A stretch of 64,000 nt of DNA from Gammaproteobacteria bacterium (GCA_028817225.1 JAPPQC010000047.1:9284-73283), one strand, 5' to 3'; counted from the first letter of the stretch, positions 2,829 to 55,260 are shown. Program-made: numbers and translations. The notes: generated from the letters alone by a model not told the origin.

Positions 2829-2851
2829 TCAGCCAGCCATCCGGACGATGT

Positions 2852-4525: not shown

Positions 4526-4673
4526 TCATCCCGTTGACGGCGAACCCTCGCCGCCGCCCGCTTTCCACAACGGCGCGGGCAACCGCCGAAACAAGCGAGT
4601 GGCCCGACGCGCCCGCTCCGGCATAGTATAACCTCGGGCAGCCGCATCCGTGCATAACTCCAAGGCTTTCATT

Positions 4674-4679
4674 ATAATG
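4674..4679 (+). promoter_or_regulatory. Candidate -10 element (TATAAT) 10 nt upstream of the first GT4 gene start, inside a low-GC 150-bp intergenic region
   Basis: The sequence cattataatgg immediately precedes the ATG at 4690. An alternative -10-like TAGTATAAC lies at about 4623-4631. No clear Shine-Dalgarno is present. Confidence 0.25.
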
Positions 4680-4689
4680 GCAAAGCAAC

Positions 4690-5844: not shown

Positions 5845-5850
5845 CAAGCC

Positions 5851-7083: not shown

Positions 7084-7099
7084 ATCATGGCAAAGCGGC

Positions 7100-9416: not shown

Positions 9417-9435
9417 ACACCAAGGCGGCAACAAC

Positions 9436-10221
9436 TCACCAGTCGCCGTACAAATACTGAAGCAGCGCAACACCCGCGGCGACGGCGGTTGCGACGCGCA
9501 GAATGCGCGGCCCCAGTCCGGTCGGCCTGAAACCGGCCTCCGCCGCGCGGCGGACTTCGTCGTCGCTCAAACTGCCTTCCGGGCCGACCAGCAGGTGCGC
9601 GCGGCGCGGCCTGGCGCGCACCGTGTCCGGAATGGCGTCGGCGCCGGGGTGCAGCACGAACGCCGGTTCATCGCCGGCGACGGGCGGCAGCGCCGCCAGA
9701 TCAACCGGCTCGGCCAGTTCCGGCAGCGCGACGCGGCCACTTTGCTCGCACGCGCCGATGACGATGCCGCGCCAGTGGCGAAGCCGTGCGGCGCCGCGCA
9801 CCGGCGCGCTGCGCGATGTCACCAGCGGCTGAATGCCGGAGACGCCCAGTTCGGTGGCTTTCCGGATTGCGGAGTCCATGTAATCGCTCTTGCACAGCGC
9901 CAGATACAGGCGCACATCCAGCGCCGGTTCGGCGGACGGCGCGAGCCGGCTTTCACAGCGGATGGCGCTCGCGCGGCGCGACACCGACTCGACCCGGCAC
10001 AGAAACTCGTCGCCGAGATGATTGAAGACGCGCACCATGCCGCCCGCGCGCATCCGCAGAACATGAAGCAGATGGTGATGGGCGCCGTCCGCGACCTCAA
10101 GCCCGGCGCCCTCGCCAAGGCGTTGTTCCAGGTAAATGCGCGGCAGATGCTCCGCCGCGCGTTCCGCGCCGGCGGCGCCCGGACGGGCCGCGGATGCCCG
10201 CAGCGCGCGGCGCGCGGTCAA
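9436..10221 (-). CDS. rsmE: 16S rRNA (uracil1498-N3)-methyltransferase RsmE
   Basis: N-terminal PRIYL(EQ) and C-terminal [13 protein letters not shown]...GPRILR motifs match RsmE. The ORF track extends it to 10401 across ahcY, which is implausible. The likely start is TTG at 10221, overlapping the ahcY TGA. The start is uncertain. Confidence 0.75.
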
Positions 10222-11531
10222 TAGCGGTAGTGGTCGGGCTTGTACGGGCCGTCCACCGGCACGCCGATGTAGTCGGCCTGTTCGGCGGTCAGTTCCGTCA
10301 GTTTCGCGCCGACCTTGTCCAGGTGCAGGCGGGCGACCTCCTCGTCGAGTTTCTTCGGCAGCACATGGACGCCGCTGTCGTAGCCACCGCCGTTTTGCCA
10401 CAGTTCAATCTGCGCCAGCACCTGGTTGGTGAAGGAGTTCGACATCACGAAACTGGGGTGGCCGGTGGCGCAGCCGAGGTTGACGAGCCGCCCCTCGGCC
10501 AGAAGAATCAGATGCTTGCCGTCGGCGAAGATGACATGGTCCACCTGCGGCTTGATGTTCTCCCAGCGGCAGTTCTTCTTCAACGAGGCGACATCAATCT
10601 CGTTGTCAAAATGGCCGATGTTGCAGACAATCGCCTGGTCTTTCATGCGCTGCATGTGGTCGTACGAAATGACGCGGTAGTTGCCGGTCGCGGTGACGAA
10701 AATATCCGCCGTGTCGGCGACATCGTCCAGCGCCACCACGCGGTAGCCCTCCATGCACGCTTGCAGCGCGCAAATCGGGTCCACCTCGGTCACCAAGACG
10801 CTGCAACCCTGCGCGCGCAGCGACTGCGCGCAGCCCTTGCCGACATCGCCGTAGCCGCAGACAACGGCGGTCTTGCCGGCGATCATCACATCGGTGGCGC
10901 GCTTGATGCCGTCGAGCAGCGATTCGCGGCAGCCGTAGATGTTGTCAAACTTCGACTTGGTCACCGAATCGTTGACATTGAACGCCACCGTCTTCAGCAG
11001 GCCGCGGCGCTGCATCTCGTAAAGCCGTTTGACGCCGGTCGTGGTCTCCTCGGAAACCCCCTTGATGGACGCCAGCAACTCCGGCCTGCGCTCGCAGACA
11101 AAGCCGGTCAGGTCGCCGCCGTCGTCGAGCAGCAGGTCGGGCGCCCAATCGCCGGGGCCTTGCAGCGTCTGCTCGATGCACCACCAGTATTCCGACTCGC
11201 TCTCGCCCTTCCACGCGAACACCGGAACGCCGGTGGCGGCGATGGCCGCCGCCGCGTGGTCCTGGGTCGAGAAGATGTTGCACGACGACCAGCGGACACT
11301 GGCGCCCAGTTCAATCAGCGTCTCGATCAGCACCGCGGTCTGTATCGTCATGTGCAGGCAGCCGGCGATGCGCGCGCCTTGCAGCGGCCTGTCGCCGGCG
11401 TAACGCTCGCGCAGCGCCATCAGCCCCGGCATCTCGGTCTCGGCAATCGCAATCTCCTTGCGCCCCCACCCGGCGAGGGCGATGTCGGCGACGCGGTGGT
11501 CTTCTTTCAGGTTTTCTGCCGGTTGGTTCAT
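10218..11531 (-). CDS. ahcY: S-adenosyl-L-homocysteine hydrolase (adenosylhomocysteinase)
   Basis: Begins [38 protein letters not shown] and carries the NAD-binding [10 protein letters not shown] motif. It is 437 aa from the ATG at 11531. The upstream ORF extension is rejected. Confidence 0.95.
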
Positions 11532-23005: not shown

Positions 23006-23602
23006 TCAGGAGGCGGTGTTCAGGCGCCTGAGCAGCGAATCAAAGCCGTCTTCGCGAATTTCGCGGTCAAAACTCTGCCTGAACTGCTTGACCAGGCTGA
23101 GGCCGTCAATCACCAGATCGAAGACCTGCCATCTGCCGTTCCTGTCGTGCATCATGTAGTTGATGCTGAGAGGCGGCTCGTTGGCCTCGAAGGTGACATC
23201 GCTCGCGACCAGCACATACTTGCCGCCGCCCGCCTTCTGCGGCGCGCGGAAACGAATCCGGTCCACCTCGGTCAGCAGTGTCAGCGATTTGCCGTAACTG
23301 CGTATCAGCAGCGACTCCATCGCCGCGGTGAAATTCCGGCGCTGCCCGTCGCCGAGGCCCTTCCAGTGCCTGCCGAGCACCAGGCGGCTCAGGGTCGCGG
23401 TGTCCACCGCCGGCAGAATGCGCTGGCGAATCAGCCGGAACAGCGCGTCGTCGTTGTTCTGATACAGCGCCTTGTTGGCCTTGACCTCGGTCAGCAATTC
23501 CTGCACCAGGCCGTCCACGGCCTTCTTCGCCGCGCCGGTGTCGGCGCAAACCGGCGACGCCAGCGCGAGGCCAGCCATCAGCGCCAGCGCGCCCCGCGTC
23601 AT
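23006..23602 (-). CDS. mlaC: Phospholipid-binding periplasmic protein MlaC (Ttg2D family)
   Basis: A signal peptide followed by an MlaC fold. It sits 3 bp upstream of murA and 3 bp downstream of the giant gene. No mlaFEDB genes are in the window. Confidence 0.8.
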   Translation of the reverse strand: MTRGALALMAGLALASPVCADTGAAKKAVDGLVQELLTEVKANKALYQNNDDALFRLIRQRILPAVDTATLSRLVLGRHWKGLGDGQRRNFTAAMESLLIRSYGKSLTLLTEVDRIRFRAPQKAGGGKYVLVASDVTFEANEPPLSINYMMHDRNGRWQVFDLVIDGLSLVKQFRQSFDREIREDGFDSLLRRLNTAS

Positions 23603-26600
23603 GCCTTTCCTCCTGCACCGCGCGCGGCGTTCGGAAAACGCCGCCGCAAAAACATGCACAGCGCGCCGAGCATCAGCATCAGCAGCCCGGCAACACCGAA
23701 ACTGCCGCCGCCCGCGCCGACTCCGCCGCCGCCACCGGCGCGCAGCCCGAGCGGATCGTGGACGACGCCGTTGGGAAGCGCCTCATCCTCGTCATATTCG
23801 CCGCCGTCGGCGACATAAACCACCAGGCAGGCGTCGCCGCCCGACTTCGGACGCCTGAGACCGCCGCTGTCGCGGTACGGGCTGTCCGCAGCCCCGGTGT
23901 CGTCGGGGCACGCGCCGTTGGCGAGCGGTGCAAAGCCATAGTCGTTGCCGCCGGGCAAGGCCGCGAACGGCTCGGAGGCGCCGTCTTCGCGGTATTTGAA
24001 CAGCGCCAGGTTGGCGTCGGCATAGAGCGATTCCGGCAGCGGAATGATCACGCCGGCGCGGCCTCCGGCCACCGTCGTCGCGGTCGAGTTTTGCGCCATC
24101 CCCGATGAGTAATCCACATCATACACGCTGAAATCATACACCACTTCAAAGCCCTCGACATCGAAGAACGACGCCGCCCAGGTGTCGTACGACGGCGCCG
24201 CGCCGGGCATCAGGTCTTCCCTGTCCGCCGCGCGCCTCAGCGTCGCCGCGCCGAGGCGCACGCTTTGCCCCGGCAGCACCGGGCGGATGTGGTGCCACGA
24301 ATCGGCGCCCGCAAGGCTCCCGTCCGTGTCCAGCACCGCCACCGGCAGGCCGCTGTCGTCTTCGTACAAATCGCTGTCGTCGGCGATGCCGTCCCGGTCG
24401 CCGTCGCTTGCGGCCACAGCCGCCAGCGCATGGGCCGACGGCACAATCGGCCACGAAACCGTCACCGTCGCGGTGGCGCCGCGCCCGGGCGCCGAGATGC
24501 GCAGCGTCACCGAAGTCGGCGTCGTAACCGCCGCCACCGTCAGCGCGACTTCAATGTCGGCGCCCGAACGCACCGCCGACAGCGCCGACAACGCGGCGGC
24601 GCCGGCGCCGGTCGCGGTCACCACAGGCGCGAGGCTCGGGTGCGGATTCTCGACCGGCAGTTGGACGGCGAACACGCCCGCCGACAGCACCGAACGCACA
24701 TCGCCGTCGCCGCGCCCGGCGCCGCTGAACAGCACCGGCGAACCGACCGTCGGCGGCAGCGAGTCGTCGCCAAGCCGCACCACCGTCGTCTGCGTCGCCA
24801 GCCCCAGCGAATAACTGTTTGCCGTCAGCGCGGCGGTGTCGGTGCCGGCACGCCACAACGACGCGCCGGCGCCCGACAGCCCGGCGATGCCCCAGGTGCG
24901 CGAAGCGGTCACGGCGCTTTTTGCGACCGTGAACGAAAAGGTTTTCCTGCCCGTCTGCATCTCACCGGTCGTGAACGACAGCGTCAAATCCGACGCCGCC
25001 TCGGGGCCGTCGTGGTTCGCCTCGACCGCAACCGTGGCCGAGTCGGCGTCGGCGGCCAGGAAGAACAGCCGTTCGCTGTTCATGTTCAATTCCGGCACGC
25101 GGACGATGCGCTGCTCAGACAGCGTGCTTGTCGTGGCCTGCGGCAGCCAGTAGCCCGCCGCGTCCGCCGCCAGCCACCCGATCCGGTGCTCAACGCCGGC
25201 CCGGATGTCGGCAAAATCCACGACCGCGCAGCCGCCGCGCGCCACCGGCGCCCGGTAATTGGCCGGGAAGCGCCCGGTGCAGCCGTAGCCGGGTTCGCCC
25301 GGCGCCGGCGTGTAGCCGAAGGTGTCGCTCAGGTACCAGGCGGTGAGCCTGGCGGCGACGGTGCCGGTCGTGCCGATGCCGAGATGGGCGTCGGCGCCGA
25401 GCACGCGGATGCCCGAATACGCGATGCGGGCGATGTCCGAAACGCCGCGGCCCAACACGACTTGCGGCAGCGCCGCACGCTCGGCGTCCGACAGCGGCGC
25501 CAGCGGATTGCCGCCGTATTCAATTTCCGCCGCATCCGGAATGCCGTCGCCGTCGCCGTCGTCGGTCAGGCCCTCGGCCACGCGCAGTTCCAGAACCCGC
25601 GCAATCCGGTTGGGCGCGGCGTTCAGGCCGCGCAGGTCGGCGTTGTCGTAAATGCCGGCGCCGGCGGCGGGCGGCGTATAGCGCACCCACACCGCGGTTT
25701 CGGTGCCCTGAATCACCGTGTCCAGTTGCAGTTCTATGCCGGTGATGCGCGCCGCGCCCGGTTGCGCCGAAACGCGGTACGCCGCCCGCTCGACGGCGAC
25801 GCTGGCGCTCGTCATTTGCCCCATCTGATGGCCCGGCAGCACCTCGAAACCTTCCAGCGCATCGCCGTCGGCGAGTTCCGCGCCGGCGGCCAGCGCCCGC
25901 GCCGGTTCGTCGAACCGCAGCCACAAACGGCTGCCGGCGTAGCCCGCGCCGTGCAGGCGCGGCGGCGAGACATCGGACACATCCGCCGACGCCGACAAAC
26001 AGCCCGTCATCGTCTCGTCGGTGTCGTAGTACGGGCAATCCTCAAGCGTCCTGGTCATCGGCGCCATGCTTTCCGTCGCGCCGGTGTCGCGCAGGAAAAT
26101 CGCATAGCCGCGAACCATCCGTTCCGGGCGCTGCACGCCGTTGTATGCGACGACAACCCTCGCCTGCGACATCGAACTGGCCACCGACGAAGGCGGGATG
26201 CCGGCGGCGAGCGCGCCGTCCAGCACATTGCCGATTGGCACCGCCCCCGCCCTCGTCAGCGGCGGCTGATTCCTGCCGGGCGCCGAATACAGCGCCAGCG
26301 CGGCGCTTGAAATGGTGACCGGCTCGGTGAACGCCAGCAGATAGCGCAAATCAAACACGCCGGTGTTGGGCGCGCGCTCGACCGACGACAGCACCGAAAA
26401 CTCGGCCACCTCCGGCGCGCCGCTCTCCGGAACGGTCGCCGTGAAAGTCATGTCGTCGTTCTGCGTGTTGCCGAAAATGTCGGTCAGCCGCCCGCCCGGT
26501 ATCGTGAACCGGAAACGCTCGCCGCCGACCGCCGACTCGCCGTTGTCGAGCGTGCCCGTCAGGCGCGCGCGGAATGTCAGCGTCGTCTCGTCCTCGCCGA

Positions 26601-29600
26601 CCGCCACCCGCACATCGGTCGCGGCGCCGTAGCGCACCAGTTCCATGCCGGACACCGTCGCGAACGGCCCGGCGGGCGGCACCGCCGCGCCGTTGCGGCT
26701 GCGCACGCCGAAGTTGTTCATGAAAGTCGCGGCGCTTGCCGTCGTCAGCACATCCTCAATCGTTACTTCCAGCAACAGTTCGGTGGGGCTGCCCGGCACC
26801 GCCGTCGCCTGCGCGGCGGCGCCGACCTGCGGCGCGTTGGCATCGCCGGCGGGCTGCACCTCGCTCCAGACCGGGCGCGCCGGCGCATAGTTTGCAAAAG
26901 ACCGGCCTTCGTCGTCGCTGATTCGCGCCGCCGCCTGCGTCTGCTCAAGGCGCACGATGTAATGCGCCAGCGTCGTCGTCGTGATGTTGATTGCGGACAG
27001 GCCGGTGACGGTCAATTCCCATGTGTCGGAATACACGACGCTGCCCGATGTCATCGCAACCGCGGGCGCGTCGGTGACCGGCGCCGCCGTGAACGACGAA
27101 TAGGCCGTCGCCGATGTCGCCAGGTTCATCACGCCGGCGTCGCTCGTCAGGCTGTCGGCCAGCGCGGCGAGGTCGGCGCCCTCGGCCACCTCCGGCGCCG
27201 AGAACAGCGTGAAACTGTCGGTACTGACGCCGGCCACCGCCTCGGTGAAGCGAAGCCGCCAGGCCATCATCAGCGTGCCGCCGCCGTCGGGCGCAACCCG
27301 GTGGCGGCGGAAGTCGGGCACCGGCGCGCCCGGCGCGCGCAGCCGCAACTGCGGCGGCGCGTTCTCGGGGAAGGCCAGTTGCCGCCGGTATTCGGCGCTG
27401 TTGGCGTCCGCCACCGCATCGGCGACGGCGCCTGCGGCGAGCGTGACGGTGATGGCCTCGACGCCGTCCGGCGAACCGCCGCTGACCGGCGCCGCGCCGC
27501 TGGTTTGCAGCGGAATGTGCAAATTGGCGCCGTCGGCCACGGCATCGCCGGCAAGCGCCGCACCGGTTATCCATTCGCTGGAGGTGGTGACGGCAATCTG
27601 CGCGCGCGCCGCGAAGTCGTTCAGCGTGACCGCCTCGTTGAACACCAGCGTCGCGGTCGCCCGGTTGCCCGCGGGAAAGTCCATCAAGGCGCCCGTCAGC
27701 ACCGGCGCGACGGTGTCCGCCACCTCGTGCGCATCACCGGTGAACGGCAGGCCCTCGATGCCCTGCCCCGGCGCGTCCCTTGCGGCGATGGTCGCGCTCT
27801 CATCCACTTGCAGGCGGTAGAAAACGGGCGCGCCAATCCGCTGGACCAGGCTGCCGGTCGAGACGATGTATTCGCGCGAGACAATGCTGTCGGCGTTGAC
27901 GACCGTGCCGCCCAGCGCCGTTTCATCGGCGCAGGAATCGGCGGCGGCGTCCACCGCGCACACGACAAAGTCGCCGCTGCCGACGCCGCTGACCGGCTCG
28001 GTGAAAACAACCGTCCAGCCGGCGCTGGAGGTGGTGTCCGGGTTTTCCTGTGCATCGCCGCGCGCCGCCGCCGAAACCACCCGCGGCGCCGCCGTGTCGT
28101 GCAGCGTGAAGAAGTCGGTGCGCGCCGCCACGCTGTTGCCGTCAAAACCGCCGGCGGGGATGTCCTCGATGGCGCCTTCGGGGAAGGCGATTTGCAGGAA
28201 ATTCGTCGCCGTGACCGGCACCGCGCCGTCCAGCGGCGCAGGCCCGCTGATTTCAAGCGCAAGGCGCAATTCCCCCGCCTCCAGCACCGCGCCGGTTACG
28301 CGGATGCCGCTGATGGCGTCGTTCAGGACCGCGGTGCGGTCGTAGCCCGCCGGGTCGCCGGCAAGCGACGCCGCCGACGCCGTCGAGAGTCCGGCGTTGA
28401 ACAGCGCAACCAGGGCGTCGGTTGTCGCCGCCGCGCGCCGCACATCCTCGTCAAAGCGGTAGATGATGGTCGTGTTGCCGGTCGAGATGGAGGGCGGCGC
28501 GGTCAGCCGCGGCGGCGTCTCGTCGCGCAGCGTCAGCACGCCGCGCGCGCCGTCGGGGCCGGTTTGCACGACGCCGCCGAGGGCGCGGGTTTTCGGCGGC
28601 ACTTCGCGGATGACATTGGTGTCGGTCGTCGCCGGCAGGTAATACAACGGCGCGCCCGACGGCTCGGCCAGTTCAATGGTGTAACCGGCGGTCGAGGCGG
28701 CGGCGGTGAACTCGAAACCCGCGCCGGCGAAGGTGTCGGCGCCGCGGCGGGATTGGGCGTCGCTGACGCTCGCGGTGCTCGAGGCCAGCGCGTAAATGTC
28801 AAAACTGTTGGCCGCCACGCCGGTGACCGGCTCAGTGAAAGTGACCGTCCATGTAACCCGTCTCGTCGTGCCGCCGGCGACAAGGCCGGCTTGCGCCTCG
28901 ACGGCGGCGATGACCGGCGCGGCGTTGTCGTTGAACCCGAAGTCCGCCGTCTCGCCGCTTGCCAGCAGGTTGCCGGTCGCATCCTGCCAGCGTATGCCGG
29001 CGTCGCCGGTGTAGGTCAGCAGCGTGATGCGCGCGCGCTCGCGCCCTTCGGGCGAGGCGCCGTTCAGCGGCGGCGGCCCCTGTGTCGCGACGGCGAACCG
29101 CACCTCGGTGCTGCCCCCCGCCGGAATCGTCGGAAACGATGTCAATGCCGCCGTCGTAATCCAGCCGCCCGGACTGTCGGTGATTTCAATGTCGGCAATG
29201 CTGCCCGTCGCCGCGTCAAACTGCACCGGCTCGCTGAAGGTCAGCGTCAGGTTTGCGTTGGCGTCGTCGAGGCGGGCGCTCATCAGCGTCGGCGCAACAA
29301 GGTCTTCCGAGGTGTGGAAGGCGCCGCGGCGGTTGTGCCCGCCCATCGTCGCGCGCCGGTCTTCGGCGGGGAACAGCGCGTTGCCGGCGTCGTCGGCGAT
29401 GGCGGCGGCGATCAATTCAACGGTGTAGCCGAAGCCCGCCGGCGGGTACTGCGACGGCGTCAGCGGCCCGAGCGCAATCGCGTAGGTCGCGCTGGCGGCG
29501 CCGGCGCTTTGCCGCGTCACCATCACATTCACATCGTTCGCGAGTTGGCCGCCGGTGTTTTCGCCTGCGAGGCTCACCTCCAGCACGCGGATGCCGCTGC

Positions 29601-32600
29601 TTTGCAGGTTCACGCGTTCGCTGAAGCGGGCGCGGAAATTCATCACATAGCCGCCGGAAGCCGATGTCCGGTTGACCGCCGTGAACTCGAGCAGCCCCGG
29701 CCTCAGGTCGTCGCCGAACGCCAGCGCCCGCGACGGCGTCTGGTGCGTCTCCGCCGGGTGGTCTTCGGCGTCCGCGACATTGTCGGTGATGTCGCCGACG
29801 AAGTTCCGCGCCAGCCGGATTTGCAGCCGCTCGGCGCCGTTTGCCGAGCGCGCCGCGCCTTCCTGAACGGCGCCGCCGAGCGTGCGCACAACCAGCGTCG
29901 CCGTCGTGTTCGAGTCGGTCGCCAGCGAAACCACCTCGACGCCGGTGATGCCGTCCGGGTTCAGCACCGACAGCACAAAGTCGGCGGTGGAGACGGCGGC
30001 GGCGTTGAAGTCGGGGCTGAAGGCGAGGCGCACGGTGTCGTTGTTGTCAAACGACGCCGCCGTCATCTCCGGCGCGGCGTTGTCGTGCGCCGGCAGTCGC
30101 GCCAGATGGTAGCCGGCGGCGACGCTCGCGCCGTCGCCCGCCGTCAGGCTTTGCCCGGCGGCGACGGCGACGGCGCCGCCGGCGGAATCGCCCGACAGCG
30201 TCAGTTCAATGACGCGCGGCGACGCCAGCGCGGCGGCGGTGATGGAAACGCCGCCGCCGGTGTGCGCGAAAACCGCCGGCGAAAGCGGCCCTTGCAGCGG
30301 CTCGCTCATCACCAAGTCAACGCGCCGCCCGTCGCCGTACAGATTCACCTCCACCGCCCACGGGTCGCCGTTGGTGGCGATGTCGTCGAAGCGGTTGCCG
30401 GCGTACGCCAGATGGCCGCGGTCGCGCCCGCCCGCCACCAGCGTTCGCAGGCCGCTCCAGCCGACTGCGGCGATGCCGACATCGGTGCGGGTGGCGGTGT
30501 CGGCGATGTCGCACTCCACACGGAACAGGTCGCGGTAGTCCGTCGTCAGTTCGCCGAAGCGCGTGCGGTTGGCGGCGGCGTCGCCGGCGTCGTAGGCATC
30601 GGCGCCTGTGGCGGTGAAAGTCCACGCCGTCGTGCCGGTCGCCGCCGTCATCGCCGTTTGCAGATAGAACCCGTCTTGACGGGTCGCGGTCAGGCCGGCC
30701 CTCGCGGCGCGGCAGTTGTTCAGGACAGCGGCGTCGTGGGCGATGCCGAATGTCGTCTGCGACAAAAAGGCGCTGCGCGCGGCGCCGTCCGGCGGCGTCA
30801 GCCGCGCCTGTGCGTCAAACGAGAAGGTCGCGCCGTTGACGACCGGGTTGGCGAGTTGATAGGCAATTCGGCTGTCGTCGCCGCAATCATCGCAGGCCAG
30901 CATCTCCGGGGTGTCGGCGTAGAGACTGTTGCCGACAACAGTGCTGAACCCGACGGGGGTCTCGTCGTCTATCGTCACCGTGGCGGTGGGCCGCGCCGAC
31001 GCGACCCGCGACCCCGAACTGCCGTCAAACTGAAGGCTCAGTGTGAACACCTCGTCCGGTTCCGACACCAAATCGTCCAGAATCTCCAGATTCAGGCAGC
31101 GCCTCTGCTCCGAGGCGGAACTCGTGAAATCGGCGAGGCGGCCGTCGCCGGTCAGCGTGTAATCCGTGTCGCGCGCGGCGGTGACGCTGTTCACGGCGAC
31201 GCTCGCCGTCACCGTCCGGTTGAGACTGTAGCCGGGAACGACGACGCAAATCGTCGTCGTCACGCCTTCGGCCAGCGTGTATTCCGCCTGCTCAAAATCA
31301 ACCCGGATGTCGTCGTCGTCCGCGATGATGATTGTTCTGGTTGTTCTATGAATCTCCAAGCCGCTGGTAAATCCCGCGACCACCTGTCCGCTGTCGTAAC
31401 TCAGTTGAAACGCCTTGTCTTCTTCCGCGACATCGTCGTCAATCAGAACCAGCGGAGGATGGACAACTCTCGAATCAAATGTGTTGCTCCGTGCTCCCCG
31501 CCTGATGGATGTGGATGTGGTCAGGCGATAGTCCTGACCCTCCACGGCGTCAAACATGGCGCCGGGCGCGGCGCCCGTCTCCCAGGGAAAATCCACATCC
31601 CGCACCGAGGCCGATGACAGATGCGGAGCCTGATCCGGCCTCAAGGTTCCCTGCGATTCGGATACCCGGATGGGGGTTGTTCTGGCAGTGTTGCGGTCTA
31701 TCCTCCAGCGATTTTCCCGAATAAACTCGTTGTCCAATACCGCCAGCACTGTCTCCTGCACCGGGGAAAAGTTGGCGGCAATTCTCGGATCCTGCTGCTC
31801 ACCCAACTCCCTGGCTTCAGCATGCGTAAGGATGCGAACATCGAACAACTCTTCATCTTCAAGCCCAACACTGTCATCAACGATGTCAAAGTTACTGACC
31901 TCAATGGTAGAGTTCAATCCGAAGGAGCGTGTAAATACGCGCCCAAGACTCGGAAGACTCGGAACAACGGTATCGCGCAGGATTTCCTGCAAAGATCCCC
32001 GAAAAACAATCCGCAAAGCCGGCTGGCCGTCAAATCGGTTTGCGCCGACATTCGTTATCTGCACGAAAAACCCCGGGTCGGATCTCGTATCTTCAACAAA
32101 ATCATGCCGGTCTCTCAAGAAGCCAAACACCAAACGGTCATCTTCCTGAATGGTGATGCCGGTGGTGCTCGCCTCGCCCGCCGTGACCAGCCCGCTGGCG
32201 CTGGTTCCGCCAATCAGCGCGTCATCAATGACAAGGCCCAGCGTTCTGGTGGTCTCGTACCCGTTCACATGCGGTATCGCGATTTTCGCCGGCGCGCCCG
32301 TCTCGCCGGCGGGCAGTGTTACCCGCGTGTTCGCCGTGCCGGCGGGCAGCGCCGTATCGCCGGCGGCGTTGAAGAAGCGGTAATCCCCGGTGCCGGCGAC
32401 AACGCCCATGCTCGTGGGGATGCTCAGGCTGAGCGGCGCAAGCCTCACCGTCACATCCTCCCCGGCCGTGCCGGGCGGCTCAAACCGCAGCCGCGGGTTG
32501 GCGGTGTTGGTGGCGCCGGGCGCCGCCTCGCTGATCAGATAACCGGTGCGCTCAAACACCACCCGCCGCGGGTCGCTTTGGGCGATGGTCGCGCTCTGCG

Positions 32601-35600
32601 ATGAGTTCAGCATCCGCGGCACTCCCGCGCCGCGGGCCGCCTCGTCCAGATGCATCACAAAGACCTCGGCGCGCTCGGTCACCTCGTCATCCACGGCGGT
32701 TACGCTGACCATCGCCGTCGTGGCGCCGGGTTCCATGATGAAAAAGCCGCTGTCCGGCTCGTAGTCGGCGGCGTCGGCGTTCGCCGTCGCGGCGGACGCA
32801 TCGGCGGCGATGCGCCACGGAATCGCGGCGGTGTTCTGGCGCGTGCTGCCGCCCAATGTCACCGTGAACGAGACGCTGAGACTCTCGGATGTCGCGCCGC
32901 CGCCGCTCAAGGCGACGGTGACTTCATCGTCGTCCAATATGGACGCGACCGGCGCCTGCCGGACGCCGACCGTGGTTTCATCAAACACCAGCGCGAAGGT
33001 TTCCCGGCCCTCGGCCAGCGCGTCGTCGGCGACGGCGACGGCGATGCTGCGGCTCGTGCCGGCGGCGTCGCCCGCGGCAAAGGCCACGCTGCCTGTTTGC
33101 GCGGTGATGAAGTCGTCGGCGTTCGCCGCGACCGCGCCGCGCCCCTCGATGGCCCAGTTCAGCGTCAGCCCGCCGCCGGCGATGTCGGCGCCGGACTCGA
33201 AAACAACGGAATACATCGCGGTGGTGCCCTCGGCAATGCTGTCCGGCCCGGCGACGGCAAACACGCGGTCTCTGGAGTCGCTCGCGGCGATGGTCGCCGT
33301 CGCCGTCATCGCCGCGGGCACTTCGCCGGCGGCGCCGGTTGCGCGCTCCAGTTCAAACACAAAGGTTTCCGCCCCCTCCGTCACAAAGTCCTTGAAGACG
33401 GCAACCTCGGCGGTCATGCGGCTGTCGCCGGGCGCGAAGGTCAGCGTGCCGGCGGGAAAATTCGCGGCGGCGGCGCGGTCGCCGAAGTCGCCGGCTTCGG
33501 CGGTGTTCATCGCGCCGGTCTGCGTGGTTTGCCAGGCCATCGTCAGGTCGTTGTCGCGCGCGCCGCCGGCCAACTCGACGGTGAAGACCGCGTCGTCGCC
33601 TTCGCTGACCGGCTGCGACGGCGGGGTGAGCGTTGCCACGACCGGATCGTTGTCGGCAATGACAACGGCGACGCCCGCCGTTGACGCGAGGCGAAGCGTG
33701 ACGCCGCCGACACGGGCGGTCACCAGTTCCAGAAACACCTCAAAGGCTTCGTCGGCTTCGTTGCGGTTGTCGTCGTGAACCGGAATCTCCAGGTTGACGC
33801 CGGTGTCGGTGCCTGCGGCCAGCGTCAGGACGCCCTCGGGGAACTCGCTGTCCAGGCCGCCGCCGAAGTCGGCGGGCCGCGCCCCGGCAGCGGTGCCTGT
33901 GACCCGGTAACGCACCTGCGCGTCGCCGTTGATTGCGCCGGACAGGCGCACGCTGAAGGCCGCGTTCGCACCCTCGGCCACCGGCGCCGCGGGGCCGGAC
34001 AGGCTGACGACGCCGACGGCGTCGGCGGCGATGGCCGCCTCACGCGACGGGTTGGCGGGCAGCGTCGGCTGCTCGGTGCTTTCGGCGCTTGCGCCGGTCA
34101 GCGTCAGCGTGAAGGTTTCGCGCTCCTCGGTCGTGAGGTCGGCGGCGAGCGGTATCGCAATCGTCGCGCTGGAATTCGTGCCCTCGGCGATGACCACGCC
34201 GCCGGAAGGAAACACGCCGCCGGCGAAGTCCGCCGCCGCCGCCGGATTGTCGCCGCTGCCGGCGACAACATATTGAACCGTGGTGGCGCTGCTGGCGCCC
34301 GGTATGCGCACGGTGAAGGTCGCGCTCGCGCCCTCGGCCACCGGCGCCGCGGGGCCTGCGTCCAGAATCACGCGGCGCGCGGGCGGGTCGTTGATGACGA
34401 CATCAACGCCGACCCGGTTCGGGTTTCTGGCGCTGACGCCGGAAGCCGGCAGCGGGAAAACGCCGCCGTTGCCCTGAAACGCGACATTCACCGACACCGC
34501 GAGCGTCTCGGTCGCCGCCTCGGCGACGGAATCGGCGATGAAGCGGATGCGGACAACGGCGCTGTCGCCGCCCGCGGGAATCGTCAAATTCCGGTTGCTT
34601 GCGCCGTGCCCGCCGAAACCCGCGGGCGCGAGCACCTGGTAGTCGCCGCCGTCCACCGTGGTGGGGCTGGTCGCGGAGTCAATGATCCAGGTGGCGACGA
34701 GGTCTTGCGTCAGCGGATAGCCGCCCTGCAATCGCAGCGTGTAGTCGGCCACATCGCCCTCCGCCACCGCGGAAGGGCCGGTGAAGGTGAAAGTGAAATC
34801 GTCGTTGCTCTCGGCGATGGTCGCCGACGCCGTGTCCTGCGGCGGCGGGCCGGTCGCGGTCATGCCGCCCTCGGCGCCGGTCAGCAACACGCTGAAAGTC
34901 TCGGCGCCTTCGTTGCCGGCGTCGTTGAACACCGGAAGGCGTATTTGGGCGGTGCTGTTGACGCCCGGCGTGATGGTCAGCATGCGGCTGGCCGGGAATG
35001 CCGCGAGCGGCGCGGTGTTGCCGGCGTTGCCGAAATCGTTCGCCGACGCCGGCGACGACACGCCCGGCAACACCGACCAGGTTACGACGGTGTTCTGCGT
35101 TGTTTGCCCGCGCGCAGTAACGGTGAAAACGGCCTCGCCGCCCTCGGCGACTTCCGCCGACGGCCCGGCGATGATAACGCCGTCGGCGGCGATGGCGGCG
35201 ACCAGCAGCGAATTGGCCGCCGGCGCCACCGCGCTGTCGCTTTCGGCGCCGGTCAGCAAAATCCGGAAGGTTTCCTCGCCTTCGGGCAGGCTGTCGTCGT
35301 CCCGAATGGACAGTTCCATCATCGCGGACGGATTGGCGCCCGCAGGGATGACGACTTCGCCGGACGGGAATTCACCGCCGGCGAAGTCCGCCGCAGACGC
35401 CGGGTTGGCGCCGAAACCGGAAACAACATAAGTGGCCGTGGTCGTGTCGGCGATGGTGCCGACAACGCGCACGGTGAAAGTCGCGGTGGCGCCCTCGGCC
35501 ACCGCCGCGGCGGGGCCTGCGGACAGCAGCACGCGGCCATCAGACGGGTCGGTCAGCGTGGTCTGCACGCTGCGCGCGGCGCCGATGATGGGAAAGACGC

Positions 35601-36402
35601 CGTCGTTGCCCCGGAACGGGGCGCCGCCGACGGACACCTGGATGGATTCCGCCGCCGTCTCGGTGACATCGTCGTCGGCGATGCGAACCAGCAGCGTGCC
35701 GGCGGTGGTGCCGGCGGCGATGGCGAGGTAGCCGGTGGCCGCCGCCGGGGCGCCGCCGAAGGACGTGGCGCCGGGGGTCAGGATTTGCAGGTCGGCGGGC
35801 GCGGCGGCGCCGCCGACGGCGACTTCGTACGGCACTTGCAGCGTGCTGACCGGCGCGTCGCCGCTGATGAGGAAGTCGTATTCGGCGGTGTCGCCCTCGA
35901 CCGCGGTCGCCGGGCCTTGCAGCGACAGGATGAAGTCGGCGCTGGCGCTGATTTCGACGACGGCGAAACGGCTGCCGGACAGCGCGGTGGCGCCGCCTTC
36001 GGCGCCGGTCAGGCGGACGGCGAAGAGTTCAACCGCCTCGTTGCGCCCGTCGCGCAACACCGGAATGGTGATGTCGGCGGTGGCATTCGTGCCAGCCTCG
36101 ACGCGCACTTCCTGCGCCGACAAAAACCTTTCCAGCGGCGTTGTCGTGCCGGGAGCGCCGAGGTCCTGCGGCTGCGCCGAACCGGAGATGCCGACGCCGG
36201 TGATGCTGTAAGTGGCCGTCGTCGCCATCGCCGTCGTGCCGTGCACCGTTATCGTGAAGACGGCGTTGCCGCCCTCGCTGACAGTCTGGTTCGCCGGAGC
36301 AATCGAGACCTCCGGCGCCTGCGCCGTCGCCGCGCCCGGGTACAAGACCGCGCCGACGACGAGAGACAGGGTCGCAAAAGCGAATGAATGGAATCTGTTC
36401 AC
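23599..36402 (-). CDS. Giant (4267 aa) secreted repeat protein / putative surface adhesin
   Basis: A single uninterrupted ORF with a GTG start.
- Signal peptide MNRFHSFAFATLSLVVGAVLYPGAATAQA.
- Roughly 15 Calx-beta-like modules of ~100 aa (recurring AxEGxxAxFTV...DF...ETFxxxL).
- A central region of different beta-rich modules.
- TSP3-like acidic calcium-binding repeats (DGDGIPDAAEIEYGGNPL, DGDRDGIADDSDLYEDD).
- A terminal tail GGGGGVGAGGGSFGVAGLLMLMLGALCMFLRRRFPNAARGAGGKA (Gly-rich motif, TM helix, Arg cluster).
GC and codon usage match the host genome. Confidence 0.85.
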   Translation of the reverse strand: MNRFHSFAFATLSLVVGAVLYPGAATAQAPEVSIAPANQTVSEGGNAVFTITVHGTTAMATTATYSITGVGISGSAQPQDLGAPGTTTPLERFLSAQEVRVEAGTNATADITIPVLRDGRNEAVELFAVRLTGAEGGATALSGSRFAVVEISASADFILSLQGPATAVEGDTAEYDFLISGDAPVSTLQVPYEVAVGGAAAPADLQILTPGATSFGGAPAAATGYLAIAAGTTAGTLLVRIADDDVTETAAESIQVSVGGAPFRGNDGVFPIIGAARSVQTTLTDPSDGRVLLSAGPAAAVAEGATATFTVRVVGTIADTTTATYVVSGFGANPASAADFAGGEFPSGEVVIPAGANPSAMMELSIRDDDSLPEGEETFRILLTGAESDSAVAPAANSLLVAAIAADGVIIAGPSAEVAEGGEAVFTVTARGQTTQNTVVTWSVLPGVSSPASANDFGNAGNTAPLAAFPASRMLTITPGVNSTAQIRLPVFNDAGNEGAETFSVLLTGAEGGMTATGPPPQDTASATIAESNDDFTFTFTGPSAVAEGDVADYTLRLQGGYPLTQDLVATWIIDSATSPTTVDGGDYQVLAPAGFGGHGASNRNLTIPAGGDSAVVRIRFIADSVAEAATETLAVSVNVAFQGNGGVFPLPASGVSARNPNRVGVDVVINDPPARRVILDAGPAAPVAEGASATFTVRIPGASSATTVQYVVAGSGDNPAAAADFAGGVFPSGGVVIAEGTNSSATIAIPLAADLTTEERETFTLTLTGASAESTEQPTLPANPSREAAIAADAVGVVSLSGPAAPVAEGANAAFSVRLSGAINGDAQVRYRVTGTAAGARPADFGGGLDSEFPEGVLTLAAGTDTGVNLEIPVHDDNRNEADEAFEVFLELVTARVGGVTLRLASTAGVAVVIADNDPVVATLTPPSQPVSEGDDAVFTVELAGGARDNDLTMAWQTTQTGAMNTAEAGDFGDRAAAANFPAGTLTFAPGDSRMTAEVAVFKDFVTEGAETFVFELERATGAAGEVPAAMTATATIAASDSRDRVFAVAGPDSIAEGTTAMYSVVFESGADIAGGGLTLNWAIEGRGAVAANADDFITAQTGSVAFAAGDAAGTSRSIAVAVADDALAEGRETFALVFDETTVGVRQAPVASILDDDEVTVALSGGGATSESLSVSFTVTLGGSTRQNTAAIPWRIAADASAATANADAADYEPDSGFFIMEPGATTAMVSVTAVDDEVTERAEVFVMHLDEAARGAGVPRMLNSSQSATIAQSDPRRVVFERTGYLISEAAPGATNTANPRLRFEPPGTAGEDVTVRLAPLSLSIPTSMGVVAGTGDYRFFNAAGDTALPAGTANTRVTLPAGETGAPAKIAIPHVNGYETTRTLGLVIDDALIGGTSASGLVTAGEASTTGITIQEDDRLVFGFLRDRHDFVEDTRSDPGFFVQITNVGANRFDGQPALRIVFRGSLQEILRDTVVPSLPSLGRVFTRSFGLNSTIEVSNFDIVDDSVGLEDEELFDVRILTHAEARELGEQQDPRIAANFSPVQETVLAVLDNEFIRENRWRIDRNTARTTPIRVSESQGTLRPDQAPHLSSASVRDVDFPWETGAAPGAMFDAVEGQDYRLTTSTSIRRGARSNTFDSRVVHPPLVLIDDDVAEEDKAFQLSYDSGQVVAGFTSGLEIHRTTRTIIIADDDDIRVDFEQAEYTLAEGVTTTICVVVPGYSLNRTVTASVAVNSVTAARDTDYTLTGDGRLADFTSSASEQRRCLNLEILDDLVSEPDEVFTLSLQFDGSSGSRVASARPTATVTIDDETPVGFSTVVGNSLYADTPEMLACDDCGDDSRIAYQLANPVVNGATFSFDAQARLTPPDGAARSAFLSQTTFGIAHDAAVLNNCRAARAGLTATRQDGFYLQTAMTAATGTTAWTFTATGADAYDAGDAAANRTRFGELTTDYRDLFRVECDIADTATRTDVGIAAVGWSGLRTLVAGGRDRGHLAYAGNRFDDIATNGDPWAVEVNLYGDGRRVDLVMSEPLQGPLSPAVFAHTGGGVSITAAALASPRVIELTLSGDSAGGAVAVAAGQSLTAGDGASVAAGYHLARLPAHDNAAPEMTAASFDNNDTVRLAFSPDFNAAAVSTADFVLSVLNPDGITGVEVVSLATDSNTTATLVVRTLGGAVQEGAARSANGAERLQIRLARNFVGDITDNVADAEDHPAETHQTPSRALAFGDDLRPGLLEFTAVNRTSASGGYVMNFRARFSERVNLQSSGIRVLEVSLAGENTGGQLANDVNVMVTRQSAGAASATYAIALGPLTPSQYPPAGFGYTVELIAAAIADDAGNALFPAEDRRATMGGHNRRGAFHTSEDLVAPTLMSARLDDANANLTLTFSEPVQFDAATGSIADIEITDSPGGWITTAALTSFPTIPAGGSTEVRFAVATQGPPPLNGASPEGRERARITLLTYTGDAGIRWQDATGNLLASGETADFGFNDNAAPVIAAVEAQAGLVAGGTTRRVTWTVTFTEPVTGVAANSFDIYALASSTASVSDAQSRRGADTFAGAGFEFTAAASTAGYTIELAEPSGAPLYYLPATTDTNVIREVPPKTRALGGVVQTGPDGARGVLTLRDETPPRLTAPPSISTGNTTIIYRFDEDVRRAAATTDALVALFNAGLSTASAASLAGDPAGYDRTAVLNDAISGIRVTGAVLEAGELRLALEISGPAPLDGAVPVTATNFLQIAFPEGAIEDIPAGGFDGNSVAARTDFFTLHDTAAPRVVSAAARGDAQENPDTTSSAGWTVVFTEPVSGVGSGDFVVCAVDAAADSCADETALGGTVVNADSIVSREYIVSTGSLVQRIGAPVFYRLQVDESATIAARDAPGQGIEGLPFTGDAHEVADTVAPVLTGALMDFPAGNRATATLVFNEAVTLNDFAARAQIAVTTSSEWITGAALAGDAVADGANLHIPLQTSGAAPVSGGSPDGVEAITVTLAAGAVADAVADANSAEYRRQLAFPENAPPQLRLRAPGAPVPDFRRHRVAPDGGGTLMMAWRLRFTEAVAGVSTDSFTLFSAPEVAEGADLAALADSLTSDAGVMNLATSATAYSSFTAAPVTDAPAVAMTSGSVVYSDTWELTVTGLSAINITTTTLAHYIVRLEQTQAAARISDDEGRSFANYAPARPVWSEVQPAGDANAPQVGAAAQATAVPGSPTELLLEVTIEDVLTTASAATFMNNFGVRSRNGAAVPPAGPFATVSGMELVRYGAATDVRVAVGEDETTLTFRARLTGTLDNGESAVGGERFRFTIPGGRLTDIFGNTQNDDMTFTATVPESGAPEVAEFSVLSSVERAPNTGVFDLRYLLAFTEPVTISSAALALYSAPGRNQPPLTRAGAVPIGNVLDGALAAGIPPSSVASSMSQARVVVAYNGVQRPERMVRGYAIFLRDTGATESMAPMTRTLEDCPYYDTDETMTGCLSASADVSDVSPPRLHGAGYAGSRLWLRFDEPARALAAGAELADGDALEGFEVLPGHQMGQMTSASVAVERAAYRVSAQPGAARITGIELQLDTVIQGTETAVWVRYTPPAAGAGIYDNADLRGLNAAPNRIARVLELRVAEGLTDDGDGDGIPDAAEIEYGGNPLAPLSDAERAALPQVVLGRGVSDIARIAYSGIRVLGADAHLGIGTTGTVAARLTAWYLSDTFGYTPAPGEPGYGCTGRFPANYRAPVARGGCAVVDFADIRAGVEHRIGWLAADAAGYWLPQATTSTLSEQRIVRVPELNMNSERLFFLAADADSATVAVEANHDGPEAASDLTLSFTTGEMQTGRKTFSFTVAKSAVTASRTWGIAGLSGAGASLWRAGTDTAALTANSYSLGLATQTTVVRLGDDSLPPTVGSPVLFSGAGRGDGDVRSVLSAGVFAVQLPVENPHPSLAPVVTATGAGAAALSALSAVRSGADIEVALTVAAVTTPTSVTLRISAPGRGATATVTVSWPIVPSAHALAAVAASDGDRDGIADDSDLYEDDSGLPVAVLDTDGSLAGADSWHHIRPVLPGQSVRLGAATLRRAADREDLMPGAAPSYDTWAASFFDVEGFEVVYDFSVYDVDYSSGMAQNSTATTVAGGRAGVIIPLPESLYADANLALFKYREDGASEPFAALPGGNDYGFAPLANGACPDDTGAADSPYRDSGGLRRPKSGGDACLVVYVADGGEYDEDEALPNGVVHDPLGLRAGGGGGVGAGGGSFGVAGLLMLMLGALCMFLRRRFPNAARGAGGKA

Positions 36403-36455
36403 ACCTGGTGCATGTGCGGGAACAAAGGCCGTGCATGCCCCTGTCCAGGCGCGGC

Positions 36456-36490
36456 ATTATACCCGAACCGCCGTTCACCGGCCAATTCGC
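36456..36490 (-). promoter_or_regulatory. Candidate promoter for the giant gene (TATAAT about 50 nt upstream of the GTG)
   Basis: A minus-strand GGTATAATG (plus-strand cattatacc at about 36455-36463) lies between the tRNA-His 3' end and the giant ORF. Confidence 0.3.
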
Positions 36491-36510
36491 GCCTTTGGCG
36501 GCGCGGGGGG

Positions 36511-36587
36511 TGGGGTGAGCGATGGGACTCGAACCCACGACATCAGGAGCCACAATCCTGTGCTCTACCAACTGAGCTACGCCCACC
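36511..36587 (-). tRNA. tRNA-His (GTG)
   Basis: Reverse complement GGTGGGCGTAGCTCAGTTGGTAGAGCACAGGATTGTGGCTCCTGATGTCGTGGGTTCGAGTCCCATCGCTCACCCCA. It has the G-1 extra base, a 7-bp acceptor stem, an anticodon loop ttGTGgc, a T-loop GGTTCGAGTCC and a CCA end. Confidence 0.9.
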
Positions 36588-36589
36588 TC

Positions 36590-36666
36590 TGGCGCGCCTG
36601 GCAGGACTCGAACCTGCTACCTCCGGTTTAGAAGACCGATGCTCTTTCCAGATGAGCTACAGGCGC
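36590..36666 (-). tRNA. tRNA-Arg (TCT)
   Basis: Reverse complement GCGCCTGTAGCTCATCTGGAAAGAGCATCGGTCTTCTAAACCGGAGGTAGCAGGTTCGAGTCCTGCCAGGCGCGCCA, with anticodon loop ctTCTaa. Confidence 0.9.
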
Positions 36667-36668
36667 CG

Positions 36669-36745
36669 TGGTCGGGGCAAGAGGATTTGAACCTCCGACC
36701 TCCTGCTCCCAAAGCAGGTGCGCTCCCAGACTGCGCCATGCCCCG
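36669..36745 (-). tRNA. tRNA-Pro (TGG)
   Basis: Reverse complement CGGGGCATGGCGCAGTCTGGGAGCGCACCTGCTTTGGGAGCAGGAGGTCGGAGGTTCAAATCCTCTTGCCCCGACCA, with anticodon loop ttTGGga. Confidence 0.9.
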
Positions 36746-55213: not shown

Positions 55214-55260
55214 TACAATCATGCGCCGCCGCAAAACCGCGCGACGCCGGAAAAACAACG

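Follow-up and report, generated by a model that had tools for sequence, protein, structure and literature searches.

An intact 12.8-kb gene for a giant repeat protein with a probable, divergent GlyGly-CTERM tail in a gammaproteobacterium

How would a bacterium export and anchor a single protein of more than four thousand residues, and how did the gene come to lie between a tRNA cluster and mlaC? Both questions are raised by a gene found in the 64-kb stretch of gammaproteobacterial DNA analysed here (64,000 nt; hereafter the window). The gene is complete, with a GTG start, at 23599..36402 on the minus strand, where all features given below also lie; the ORF list and translation bore out the preliminary description of one intact 12.8-kb reading frame, in that 12,804 nt run uninterrupted to encode 4267 aa. 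The mature protein was computed to have a mass of ~434 kDa and a pI of 4.3. Exact look-up of the 4267-aa protein returned no match on record; an orthologue of 4270 aa (P0008), 99% identical and with the same start and module count, was found in a second assembly (L006). Comparison of the two copies gave a dN/dS of 0.33 and zero frameshifts and, on that basis, the gene is real, intact, functional, and under purifying selection. Between tRNA-His and the start codon, a consensus scan located a promoter-like site (TTGGCC-18-TATAAT; 36456..36485; 10/12 matches, a pattern match only).

The overall plan of the protein, as first described, was upheld: signal peptide, Calx-beta modules, central beta modules, and tripartite tail. 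The N-terminus was read by eye as a Sec-type signal peptide (aa 1-27; 36322..36402) consisting of MNRFH, a hydrophobic core, and ATA, then QA (MNRFHSFAFATLSLVVGAVLYPGAATA before QA), with the same start in L006. Ten contiguous Calx-beta-like modules follow (aa 27-1278; 32569..36324), delimited by self-BLAST, a self-iterated HMM, and Pfam Calx-beta matches in the span; another lies at aa 1300-1421 (32140..32505; self-built HMM, 58 bits) and two more at aa 1568-1814 (30961..31701; Pfam and self-built HMM). A Cys-containing segment without a Pfam match (aa 1815-2106; 30085..30960) separates these from eleven Big_5-like Ig modules (aa 2107-3600; 25603..30084), identified by motif scan and self-built HMMs; each opens with a motif of the D-x-x-A-P-x-L type, and the modules are mutually homologous, with two subtypes alternating. 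The family is defined by a conserved C-terminal block of ~750 aa (aa 3477-4220; 23743..25974; alignment and profile search). Further features towards the C-terminus are a TSP3-like calcium-binding motif (DDGDGDGIPDAAE..., aa 3614-3634; 25501..25563), a fourteenth Calx-beta-like module (aa 3737-3864; 24811..25194; self-built HMM, 44.6 bits), a second TSP3-like motif found by eye (DGDRDGIADDSD, aa 4000-4011; 24370..24405), whose D/G columns are invariant in the family alignment, and a C-terminal beta-sandwich domain (23737..24450) that ends in a segment resembling choice-of-anchor U (CLVVYVADGGEYDEDEALPNGVVHDPLGL, aa 4192-4220).

The earlier estimate of about 15 Calx-beta modules was thus close to the 14 that an HMM built iteratively from the protein's own sequence recovered. 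Pfam's own Calx-beta model (PF03160) scored 142.8 bits for the whole protein against a gathering score of 27, covering the full model in its best stretch (aa 1695-1814) and matching more stretches in segment scans; it detects only some of the 14. Big_5 (PF13205) reached 23.6 bits for the segment aa 2001-2400, equal to its cut-off of 23.6, with single stretches each below it. For the proposed TSP3-like repeats, the two DxDxDG motifs (aa 3615 and 4000) are present but isolated, and the sole Pfam match, to bacterial TSP3 (PF18884, TSP3_bac), was one stretch at ~aa 3617-3636 that fell below the cut-off (16.4 bits, E=0.0081, vs 25). The best explanation is that the protein is a very acidic, calcium-binding chain of beta-sandwich domains.

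The tail comprises a Gly-rich signature (AGGGGGVGAGGGS, aa 4222-4234; 23701..23739), proposed here as the region of rhombosortase recognition and cleavage and matched by Gly runs in relatives; a hydrophobic transmembrane (TM) segment (FGVAGLLMLMLGALCMFL, aa 4235-4252; 23647..23700), helical in the first AlphaFold2 model; and a basic cluster, RRR, with a 12-residue extension (FPNAARGAGGKA; 23602..23646) that is kept in L004, L005, and L006. An extension of 12 residues after RRR is atypical. The only Cys of the tail (C4249) is inside the helix; the signature has none. A Cys-free signature, FGVAGLLMLMLGALCMFL, and RRR at the extreme C-terminus together make up the tripartite arrangement called for in the curation of GlyGly-CTERM (PMC3237569).

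Comparison of the tail with the NCBIfam sorting-signal models, the check proposed at the outset, gave a score below cut-off on every one, GlyGly-CTERM included. TIGR03501 (cut-off 15.5 bits) was absent even at E<=10, whether the last 45, 58, or 60 aa were used; the only trace was a match to the tail end of the SVAGG GlyGly-CTERM family model (E=1.3). PEP-CTERM (TIGR02595) was also unmatched and, as previously observed, the last 60 aa contain no PEP motif. The score for MYXO-CTERM was 9.4 bits, where the cut-off is 20, and the signature Cys of the MYXO-CTERM/JDVT-CTERM type is absent. The choice-of-anchor U model (NF041766) was matched at positions 61-90 of 92, below its cut-off (19.3 bits, E=0.0016, vs 32); relatives P0002, P0003, and P0009 scored 29.9, 29.8, and 26.9 bits. 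The likeness is confined to the ~30 residues that immediately precede the tail, where DGG-x-x-D-x-D-x-x-x-NG-x-x-x-DP-x-G matches the C-terminal third of the model, whereas the preceding ~200 aa (WHHIRP ... GFAPL-NG-CP) belong to a larger beta-sandwich outside it. No other protein in the window was found to have a similar tail.

Homologues were searched for with the last 487 aa as query. When a profile of the C-terminal region was run against 1.84 billion representative proteins, 229 relatives were recovered, 30 of them below 1e-30. A Gly run, TM segment, and Arg/Lys ending were present in ~110 of the 151 relatives retrieved; in ~90 of these 110 tailed proteins the Gly run occupies the signature position, and in 11 the signature is G-C-[ST]. 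Within a subset of 67 tails, matches were obtained to GlyGly_CTERM (14), SVAGG GlyGly (11), choice_anch_U (17), JDVT-CTERM (8), and MYXO-CTERM (7). Three tails (P0040, P0078, and P0109) pass TIGR03501 outright, at 19.0, 22.0, and 19.2 bits vs 15.5. These three are distant relatives, with homology spanning only the last ~150 aa. The profile alignment runs through the relatives' tails, and the tail studied here falls within the biocuration rule of extended homology through a trusted GlyGly-CTERM instance (PMC3237569). The conserved block (aa 3477-4220) shares 33-41% identity with ~25 proteins that differ in their N-terminal repeat regions. Five sub-clade relatives (P0004-P0007 and P0010) lack the tail altogether. 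The 17 of 67 C-terminal segments that match NF041766 bear tails of several classes (GlyGly, JDVT, and MYXO types).

Outside the species, the nearest full homologue is P0009, which is 35% identical over aa 2090-4218 of the giant protein (~2,100 aa); its gene overlaps by 8 nt that of a 201-aa rhombosortase (TIGR03902, 148.6 bits vs a cut-off of 84). Despite this neighbour, the tail of P0009 also fails TIGR03501; the model is therefore insensitive to the clade to which the giant protein belongs. On a further contig (ctg25966c), one rhombosortase gene was found, with a 3330-aa family member adjacent and a 5901-aa member ~300 kb away, the same many-to-one, unlinked pairing of enzyme and targets described previously (PMC3237569). 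In related genomes, the operon for type II secretion (T2SS) is closed by a rhombosortase gene; in L009, L010, L011, and 10 of 35 metagenome loci, such a gene either ends a T2SS operon or lies within one. This linkage, in related and unrelated loci alike, is consistent with the VesB pathway of Vibrio cholerae (PMC6219818, PMC13393428) and provides genomic support for the coupling shown there experimentally. In a survey from 2011, no evidence emerged for rhombosortase as a marker of any particular T2SS subclass (PMC3237569), and GlyGly-CTERM alone is reported to confer membrane association, a second signal being required for outer-membrane transit (PMC13393428).

Within the 64-kb window itself, no rhombosortase or T2SS gene was found, and a TM scan detected no rhomboid- or exosortase-like protein; the multi-TM proteins present are PotB-like, cytochrome b, CvpA, ComEC, LolC/E, and CcmF. 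The remark that dedicated processing genes are missing from the window thus held. One rhombosortase (P0167) was considered as the organism's own and rejected, its source organism having 42% GC. A metagenome scan with the rhombosortase alignment returned no contig of the related sample 3300009900 among the matches listed, and amino-acid composition failed to separate candidate enzymes for this organism. In L007, the island of low-GC genes upstream of the giant gene encoded no GlyGly-tailed proteins, and literature searches found no paper joining rhombosortase with Calx-beta giants.

Because the tail is homologous to those of rhombosortase-linked relatives, and though it fails the HMM test, we assign it to rhombosortase: we think it likely, with room for doubt, that it represents a divergent form of the GlyGly-CTERM signal, that a rhombosortase whose gene lies elsewhere in the genome cuts it, and that the protein is anchored and then exported by T2SS. 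The preliminary judgement that the tail stands closer to GlyGly-CTERM than to PEP-CTERM gains support from the TIGR03501-passing tails and the rhombosortase-adjacent homologue. The pathway would run as follows: the N-terminal signal peptide would direct Sec export; the C-terminal helix would hold the protein transiently in the inner membrane, with RRR in the cytoplasm; rhombosortase, presumably present in this genome together with T2SS, would cleave the Gly-run, helix, and RRR tail at the Gly run; and the new C-terminus would gain an anchor containing glycerophosphoethanolamine, by analogy with VesB of V. cholerae. Hand-over to T2SS would then translocate the lipid-anchored protein across the outer membrane for display at the cell surface, where it would probably serve as a Ca2+-dependent adhesin or matrix protein. 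The adhesive role is suggested by the domain types; the protein is probably the main large surface or adhesion protein of the organism. A cargo of 434 kDa would be far above the size of known T2SS substrates, which counts against this reading, as do the 12 residues after RRR, the five relatives devoid of the tail, the failure at the sorting-signal models, the absence of rhombosortase and T2SS genes from the window, and the second signal reported for outer-membrane transit.

The strongest alternative is a plain stop-transfer anchor, by which the protein would remain unprocessed and tethered to the inner membrane, its 430-kDa body lying in or spanning the periplasm. Such an anchor would agree with the failure at every sorting-signal HMM, the absence of a processing enzyme from the window, and the unusual residues beyond RRR. 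We nevertheless consider it unlikely: the Gly run ahead of the helix is conserved in the ~90 tailed relatives, a choice-of-anchor-U-like segment precedes the tail, a homologue is translationally coupled to rhombosortase, and a chain of beta-sandwich domains 4,000 aa long would be hard to fit in the periplasm.

On rhombosortase sorting, the giant protein most likely belongs to a known system, its size and its unrecognised tail being the unusual points. It has in common with GlyGly-CTERM/rhombosortase pairs (TIGR03501/TIGR03902; VesB-RssP in V. cholerae) the N-terminal signal peptide, Cys-free Gly-rich signature, TM helix, and basic cluster, and its family shares with them the tails that pass TIGR03501, a homologue beside the TIGR03902 enzyme, the linkage of that enzyme to T2SS, and targets unlinked from the enzyme in many-to-one fashion. 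It differs in being missed by TIGR03501, in a long Gly/Ala/Val run that is not SGGS-like, in a helix rich in Leu/Met/Gly/Ala, and in the 12 extra residues after RRR. The characterised rhombosortase targets VesA/B/C, Xds, and ExeM are enzymes of a few hundred to ~900 aa, unlike this cargo of 4267 aa. An entire clade of probable targets of rhombosortase thus goes unrecognised by the curated GlyGly-CTERM model, one of them encoded beside the enzyme and, because of this, genome annotation under-counts rhombosortase sorting. If the assignment is true, the cargo of rhombosortase would widen from the secreted enzymes characterised to date to half-megadalton repeat proteins, and one would then have to ask by what means, if at all, such proteins get through the T2SS secretin.

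A broader proposal can be offered only tentatively: in a high-GC clade of marine Gammaproteobacteria, possibly sponge-associated, rhombosortase and a linked T2SS may lipid-anchor and export rods of 1,400-5,900 aa whose tail variant is missed by the curated GlyGly-CTERM model. The sponge origin is a guess from the MAG name PNGst_S_binSS2, for which literature searches gave no confirmation. If the proposal is true, these rods (0.43 MDa here) would exceed by a wide margin any other cargo put forward for the rhombosortase/T2SS pathway; if they are unable to cross the secretin, they would represent a new class of rhombosortase-processed scaffolds spanning the periplasm.

The position of the gene suggested another history, that of a recent island inserted at a tRNA-Pro/Arg/His hotspot and splitting an ancestral mlaFEDC-murA operon. 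As originally described, the gene lies directly downstream of three tRNA genes on the same strand (tRNA-His(gtg), tRNA-Arg(tct), and tRNA-Pro(tgg); 36511..36745; ARAGORN), and mlaC, directly downstream of it in turn (23006..23602; Pfam MlaC, 2.7e-39) and followed by murA, has no mlaD/E/F among the annotated window ORFs, which are part of all window ORFs. A genome-contig scan with MlaC found one MAG contig, ending 100 nt upstream of mlaC. More distant family members occupy varied loci, which would favour insertion: the L001 gene precedes rplY-pth-ychF, that of L002 precedes maf, that of L007 lies beside rhombosortase, and that of L008 is flanked by purK and purE. We found no integrase, however, and the far border showed no att-like direct repeat of a tRNA 3' end; GC (68.9% in the gene vs 66.7% in the remaining window) and tetranucleotide usage match the flanks; and purifying selection at the dN/dS given above also speaks against recent arrival. 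The TGA of the giant gene overlaps the ATG of mlaC (ATGA), implying long co-adaptation; given the overlap, the two genes are probably co-transcribed and translationally coupled, with no terminator-like site separating them. The arrangement of tRNA genes, giant gene, and mlaC is the same in L006, L004, and L005 (99%, 94%, and 88% identity). The locus is thus fixed among close relatives, as expected of an old core locus, but distant members lie elsewhere. Recent insertion is quite improbable.

The modular build of the protein also invited the idea of a size-variable contingency gene, in which near-identical internal DNA repeats recombine to alter module number, and three related short-read assemblies (L004 and L005 among them) do break within or beside the gene. 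The idea did not withstand inspection of the repeats: the 27-mer first singled out occurs three times (with 0, 1, and 2 mismatches), the longest internal repeats (111-125 nt) are 68-77% identical, and repeats overall are merely 60-78% identical at the DNA level, one exact 27-mer being the longest shared stretch. Tandem Repeats Finder reported no module-scale array. Module number was equal in two independent assemblies, with the difference between 4267 and 4270 aa due to Gly-run indels only. With modules so diverged, repeat-mediated expansion or contraction is very improbable.

Finally, secretion by a type I system (T1SS) as an RTX/LapA-type adhesin is hardly credible: many such adhesins are giant and acidic with Calx-beta and Ig-like repeats, and the present protein resembles them in its megadalton-scale, acidic run of tandem calcium-binding beta-sandwich modules, probably an extended rod, but it lacks a Pfam match to RTX (HemolysinCabind), T1SS genes were not found nearby, and its Sec signal peptide and C-terminal membrane-anchor sorting tail, with TM helix and RRR, stand where LapA/RTX-type adhesins carry an N-terminal retention module and a C-terminal RTX/T1SS signal.

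The giant gene is a single unbroken open reading frame (23599..36402, minus strand; GTG start, 4267 codons), and an exact look-up found no identical copy of its product on record. The sequence at the N-terminus (MNRFHSFAFATLSLVVGAVLYPGAATA|QA) shows the n/h/c arrangement of a putative Sec signal peptide; the mature protein would have a mass of ~434 kDa and a pI of 4.3. A Pfam scan of the whole protein returned only Calx-beta above threshold (142.8 bits), and a scan in ten segments added further Calx-beta stretches, Big_5 exactly at the cut-off, and one sub-threshold TSP3_bac. Comparing the protein with itself and iterating HMMs on its own sequence resolved 14 Calx-beta-like modules (ten contiguous at aa 27-1278, then 1300-1421, 1568-1697, 1696-1814, and 3737-3864) and 11 Big_5-like modules of two alternating subtypes (starting at aa 2107, 2230, 2366, 2491, 2627, 2769, 2896, 3013, 3186, 3326, and 3477). 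Based on this map, the architecture given in the preliminary description was essentially right, except that its "TSP3 repeats" are two single, isolated DxDxDG motifs (aa 3615 and 4000). When aa 3985-4235 were modelled with AlphaFold2 from a 47-sequence alignment, the result was confident (pLDDT 85.7, pTM 0.85) and predicts beta-strand for most of the segment. The last 46 residues consist of AGGGGGVGAGGGS, followed by FGVAGLLMLMLGALCMFL and RRRFPNAARGAGGKA.

This tail had been likened to GlyGly-CTERM, and a check against sorting-signal HMMs had been proposed. When run on the last 45, 58, and 60 residues, the check returned no NCBIfam sorting-signal model at cut-off; the GlyGly-CTERM model, TIGR03501, was unlisted. 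The closest full-length homologue outside the species, P0009 (3330 aa; 35% identity over window aa 2090-4218), shows how this failure should be read. There is an 8-nt overlap between its gene and one of 201 aa (locus L007, and near-identical L093) that matches the rhombosortase model TIGR03902 at 148.6 bits (cut-off 84). The P0009 tail (GGGGGGGSVGLIELFGILFFVAALLLRQRRRR) is nevertheless below the TIGR03501 cut-off, as are the tails of other close high-GC relatives (P0016, P0018, P0024, and P0031). The failure of the window tail thus reflects low sensitivity of the model to the tail variant of this clade and does not weigh against a sorting-signal role. Tails of distant relatives do pass TIGR03501 (cut-off 15.5), at 19.0 (P0040), 22.0 (P0078), and 19.2 bits (P0109).

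When 1.84 billion representative proteins were searched with a C-terminal-region profile, 229 relatives emerged, of which 30 had E-values below 1e-30. Some 25 have the entire 750-aa C-terminal block (aa 3477-4220) in common, at 33-41% identity, with differing N-terminal repeat regions and lengths from 1,269 to 5,901 aa. A Gly run, a hydrophobic helix, and terminal Arg/Lys were present in ~110 of the 151 relatives that were retrieved; the signature contained Gly-Gly in 90 and G-C-[ST] in 11. NCBIfam models matched in 67 scanned tails were choice_anch_U (17), GlyGly_CTERM (14), the SVAGG GlyGly tail (11), JDVT-CTERM (8), and MYXO-CTERM (7). The ~30 residues preceding the window tail align with the final part of the choice-of-anchor U model, NF041766, scoring 19.3 bits (cut-off 32); the scores of close relatives are 27-30 bits. 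One sub-clade (P0004-P0007, P0010, P0012, and P0017) is without the Gly/TM/RRR tail, its proteins stopping directly after the choice-of-anchor-U-like segment (...ALIGLAATVPPR). At locus L002:1-11335, the 10 kb upstream of a 444-aa call are annotated solely with short opposite-strand ORFs, which suggests that the giant gene there was mis-called or is degraded.

Rhombosortase genes were repeatedly linked physically to type II secretion (T2SS) operons, among relatives and elsewhere. The gene order in the high-GC clade runs gspE...gspN, rhodanese, rhombosortase, zapA, with rhombosortase following gspE...gspN and the rhodanese gene at L009:1-10630 and L010:1-10585; L007:1-20591 is also linked. In two unrelated 42% GC loci (L011:4173-16545 and L012), rhombosortase lies within the T2SS operon, between gspF and gspG. 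Among 35 metagenome loci that were 6 kb or longer, 10 had Gsp homologues flanking rhombosortase. A 2011 survey found no evidence of rhombosortase marking a particular T2SS subclass (PMC3237569). Between the rhodanese and giant genes of L007, about ten genes without Pfam hits (1506-9186; 42-51% GC, against ~60% in the rest of the locus) are probably a foreign insertion; none of their products has a GlyGly-type tail. Small Nif11-family genes, which may encode RiPP precursor peptides, recur in the related genomes as arrays of three to five, located a few kb downstream from the rhombosortase locus (L007:27977-29986, L009:16812-17816, L010:16720-17058, and L093:18508-20517).

Transmembrane scanning and family scans of multi-TM ORFs detected no rhomboid or exosortase-like membrane protein in the window. 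A direct precedent for such separation is a 1.83 Mb contig (ctg25966c, ERZ22155170) with one rhombosortase and two giants: the 3330-aa member, at 683-703 kb, adjoins the enzyme (L093:16-10606), and a 5901-aa member lies ~300 kb from the enzyme, between purK and purE (991-1029 kb; L008:10001-27706). This is the same many-to-one, unlinked layout described for GlyGly-CTERM systems (PMC3237569). The 5901-aa member has a variant tail (GGSRHHSGAFSP...). A rhombosortase candidate for the window organism was rejected, as it belongs to another organism.

In Vibrio cholerae, the GlyGly-CTERM of VesB is cleaved by rhombosortase (PMC6219818, PMC13393428); the tail alone confers membrane association, and outer-membrane transit needs a second signal (PMC13393428). 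Because of the tail homology and the gene linkage in relatives, we propose a VesB-like route for the window protein, in an organism that presumably encodes a rhombosortase and a T2SS. Following Sec export, the C-terminal helix would serve as a transient anchor, the Gly run would be cut by rhombosortase, and lipid-type anchoring would precede T2SS-dependent surface display. There the Calx-beta and Ig-like modules might form a Ca2+-stiffened rod, perhaps adhesive, with the conserved C-terminal block near the membrane. The protein does not represent a new type of system and is best classed as an HMM-invisible addition to the rhombosortase/GlyGly-CTERM target class, with a choice-of-anchor-U-like domain. 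Worth following are a tail variant overlooked by the curated model, the linkage of rhombosortase and T2SS genes, and the very large size of the putative T2SS cargo.

The giant gene itself is genuine and functional, and chiefly its size makes it noteworthy. Its orthologue in an independent assembly (P0008, 4270 aa, 99% identical; L006) shows 58 substitutions and three indels of a single Gly, and the dN/dS of 0.33 between the two indicates that the gene is under purifying selection. Near-identical internal DNA repeats had been thought able to change module number, an idea that finds no support here. The 27-mer quoted as an example has three copies (0, 1, and 2 mismatches) within homologous modules otherwise just 68-77% identical over 111-125 nt, Tandem Repeats Finder detected no module-scale tandem repeats, and nothing in the comparison with P0008 points to modules having been gained or lost.

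Insertion at a tRNA hotspot had also been suggested, since tRNA-His(gtg), tRNA-Arg(tct), and tRNA-Pro(tgg) (ARAGORN; 36511-36745, minus strand) lie directly upstream. A recent event of this kind is unsupported: the locus lacks an integrase, the far border of the gene carries no repeated tRNA 3' end, tetranucleotide usage matches that of the flanks, GC content is similar (68.9% vs 66.7% for the rest of the window), and the giant-mlaC-murA order is kept in three relatives. These are L004 (94%), L006 (99%; whole neighbourhood conserved), and the MAG locus L005 (88%), whose contig begins 100 nt before mlaC, those 100 nt encoding ...LLRRRLPNAVRAAGADK*. In more distant family members the gene has unrelated neighbours, preceding rplY-pth-ychF in L001 and maf in L002, adjoining rhombosortase in L007, and lying between purK and purE in L008. 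No mlaD, mlaE, or mlaF was found among the annotated window ORFs; an old rearrangement may have parted mlaC-murA from mlaFED. The MAG name invites the guess of a sponge origin, for which a literature search gave no confirmation.

A promoter-like TTGGCC-18-TATAAT pattern lies between tRNA-His and the start codon. Downstream, the mlaC ATG overlaps the TGA of the giant gene (ATGA), with no terminator-like site between them; MlaC (Pfam 2.7e-39), MurA, HisG, DAHP synthase, and HisD follow on the same strand. Past the tRNAs are ppiB-like and lpxH genes on the opposite strand and, farther on, glycerate kinase, YkuD transpeptidase, PurF, and CvpA. The remaining annotated ORFs are housekeeping, including pot-type ABC transport, cytochrome bc1, ComEC, and ccm genes, and an ABC-transporter ATPase adjoining a multi-TM LolC/E-like ORF. 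Beside comEC, a 375-aa ORF without a Pfam hit (55770-56897, minus strand) adjoins a 191-aa membrane protein (55198-55773, plus strand), more likely DUF-type than the T4SS effector BspA, whose model it matches weakly (47.7 bits; cut-off 300). A region of lower GC (4000-10400; 59-61% vs ~67%) contains three GT4 glycosyltransferase-like ORFs (4690-5844, 7049-8269, and 8262-9416) around ispG/GcpE (5851-7083), which overlaps the next ORF.
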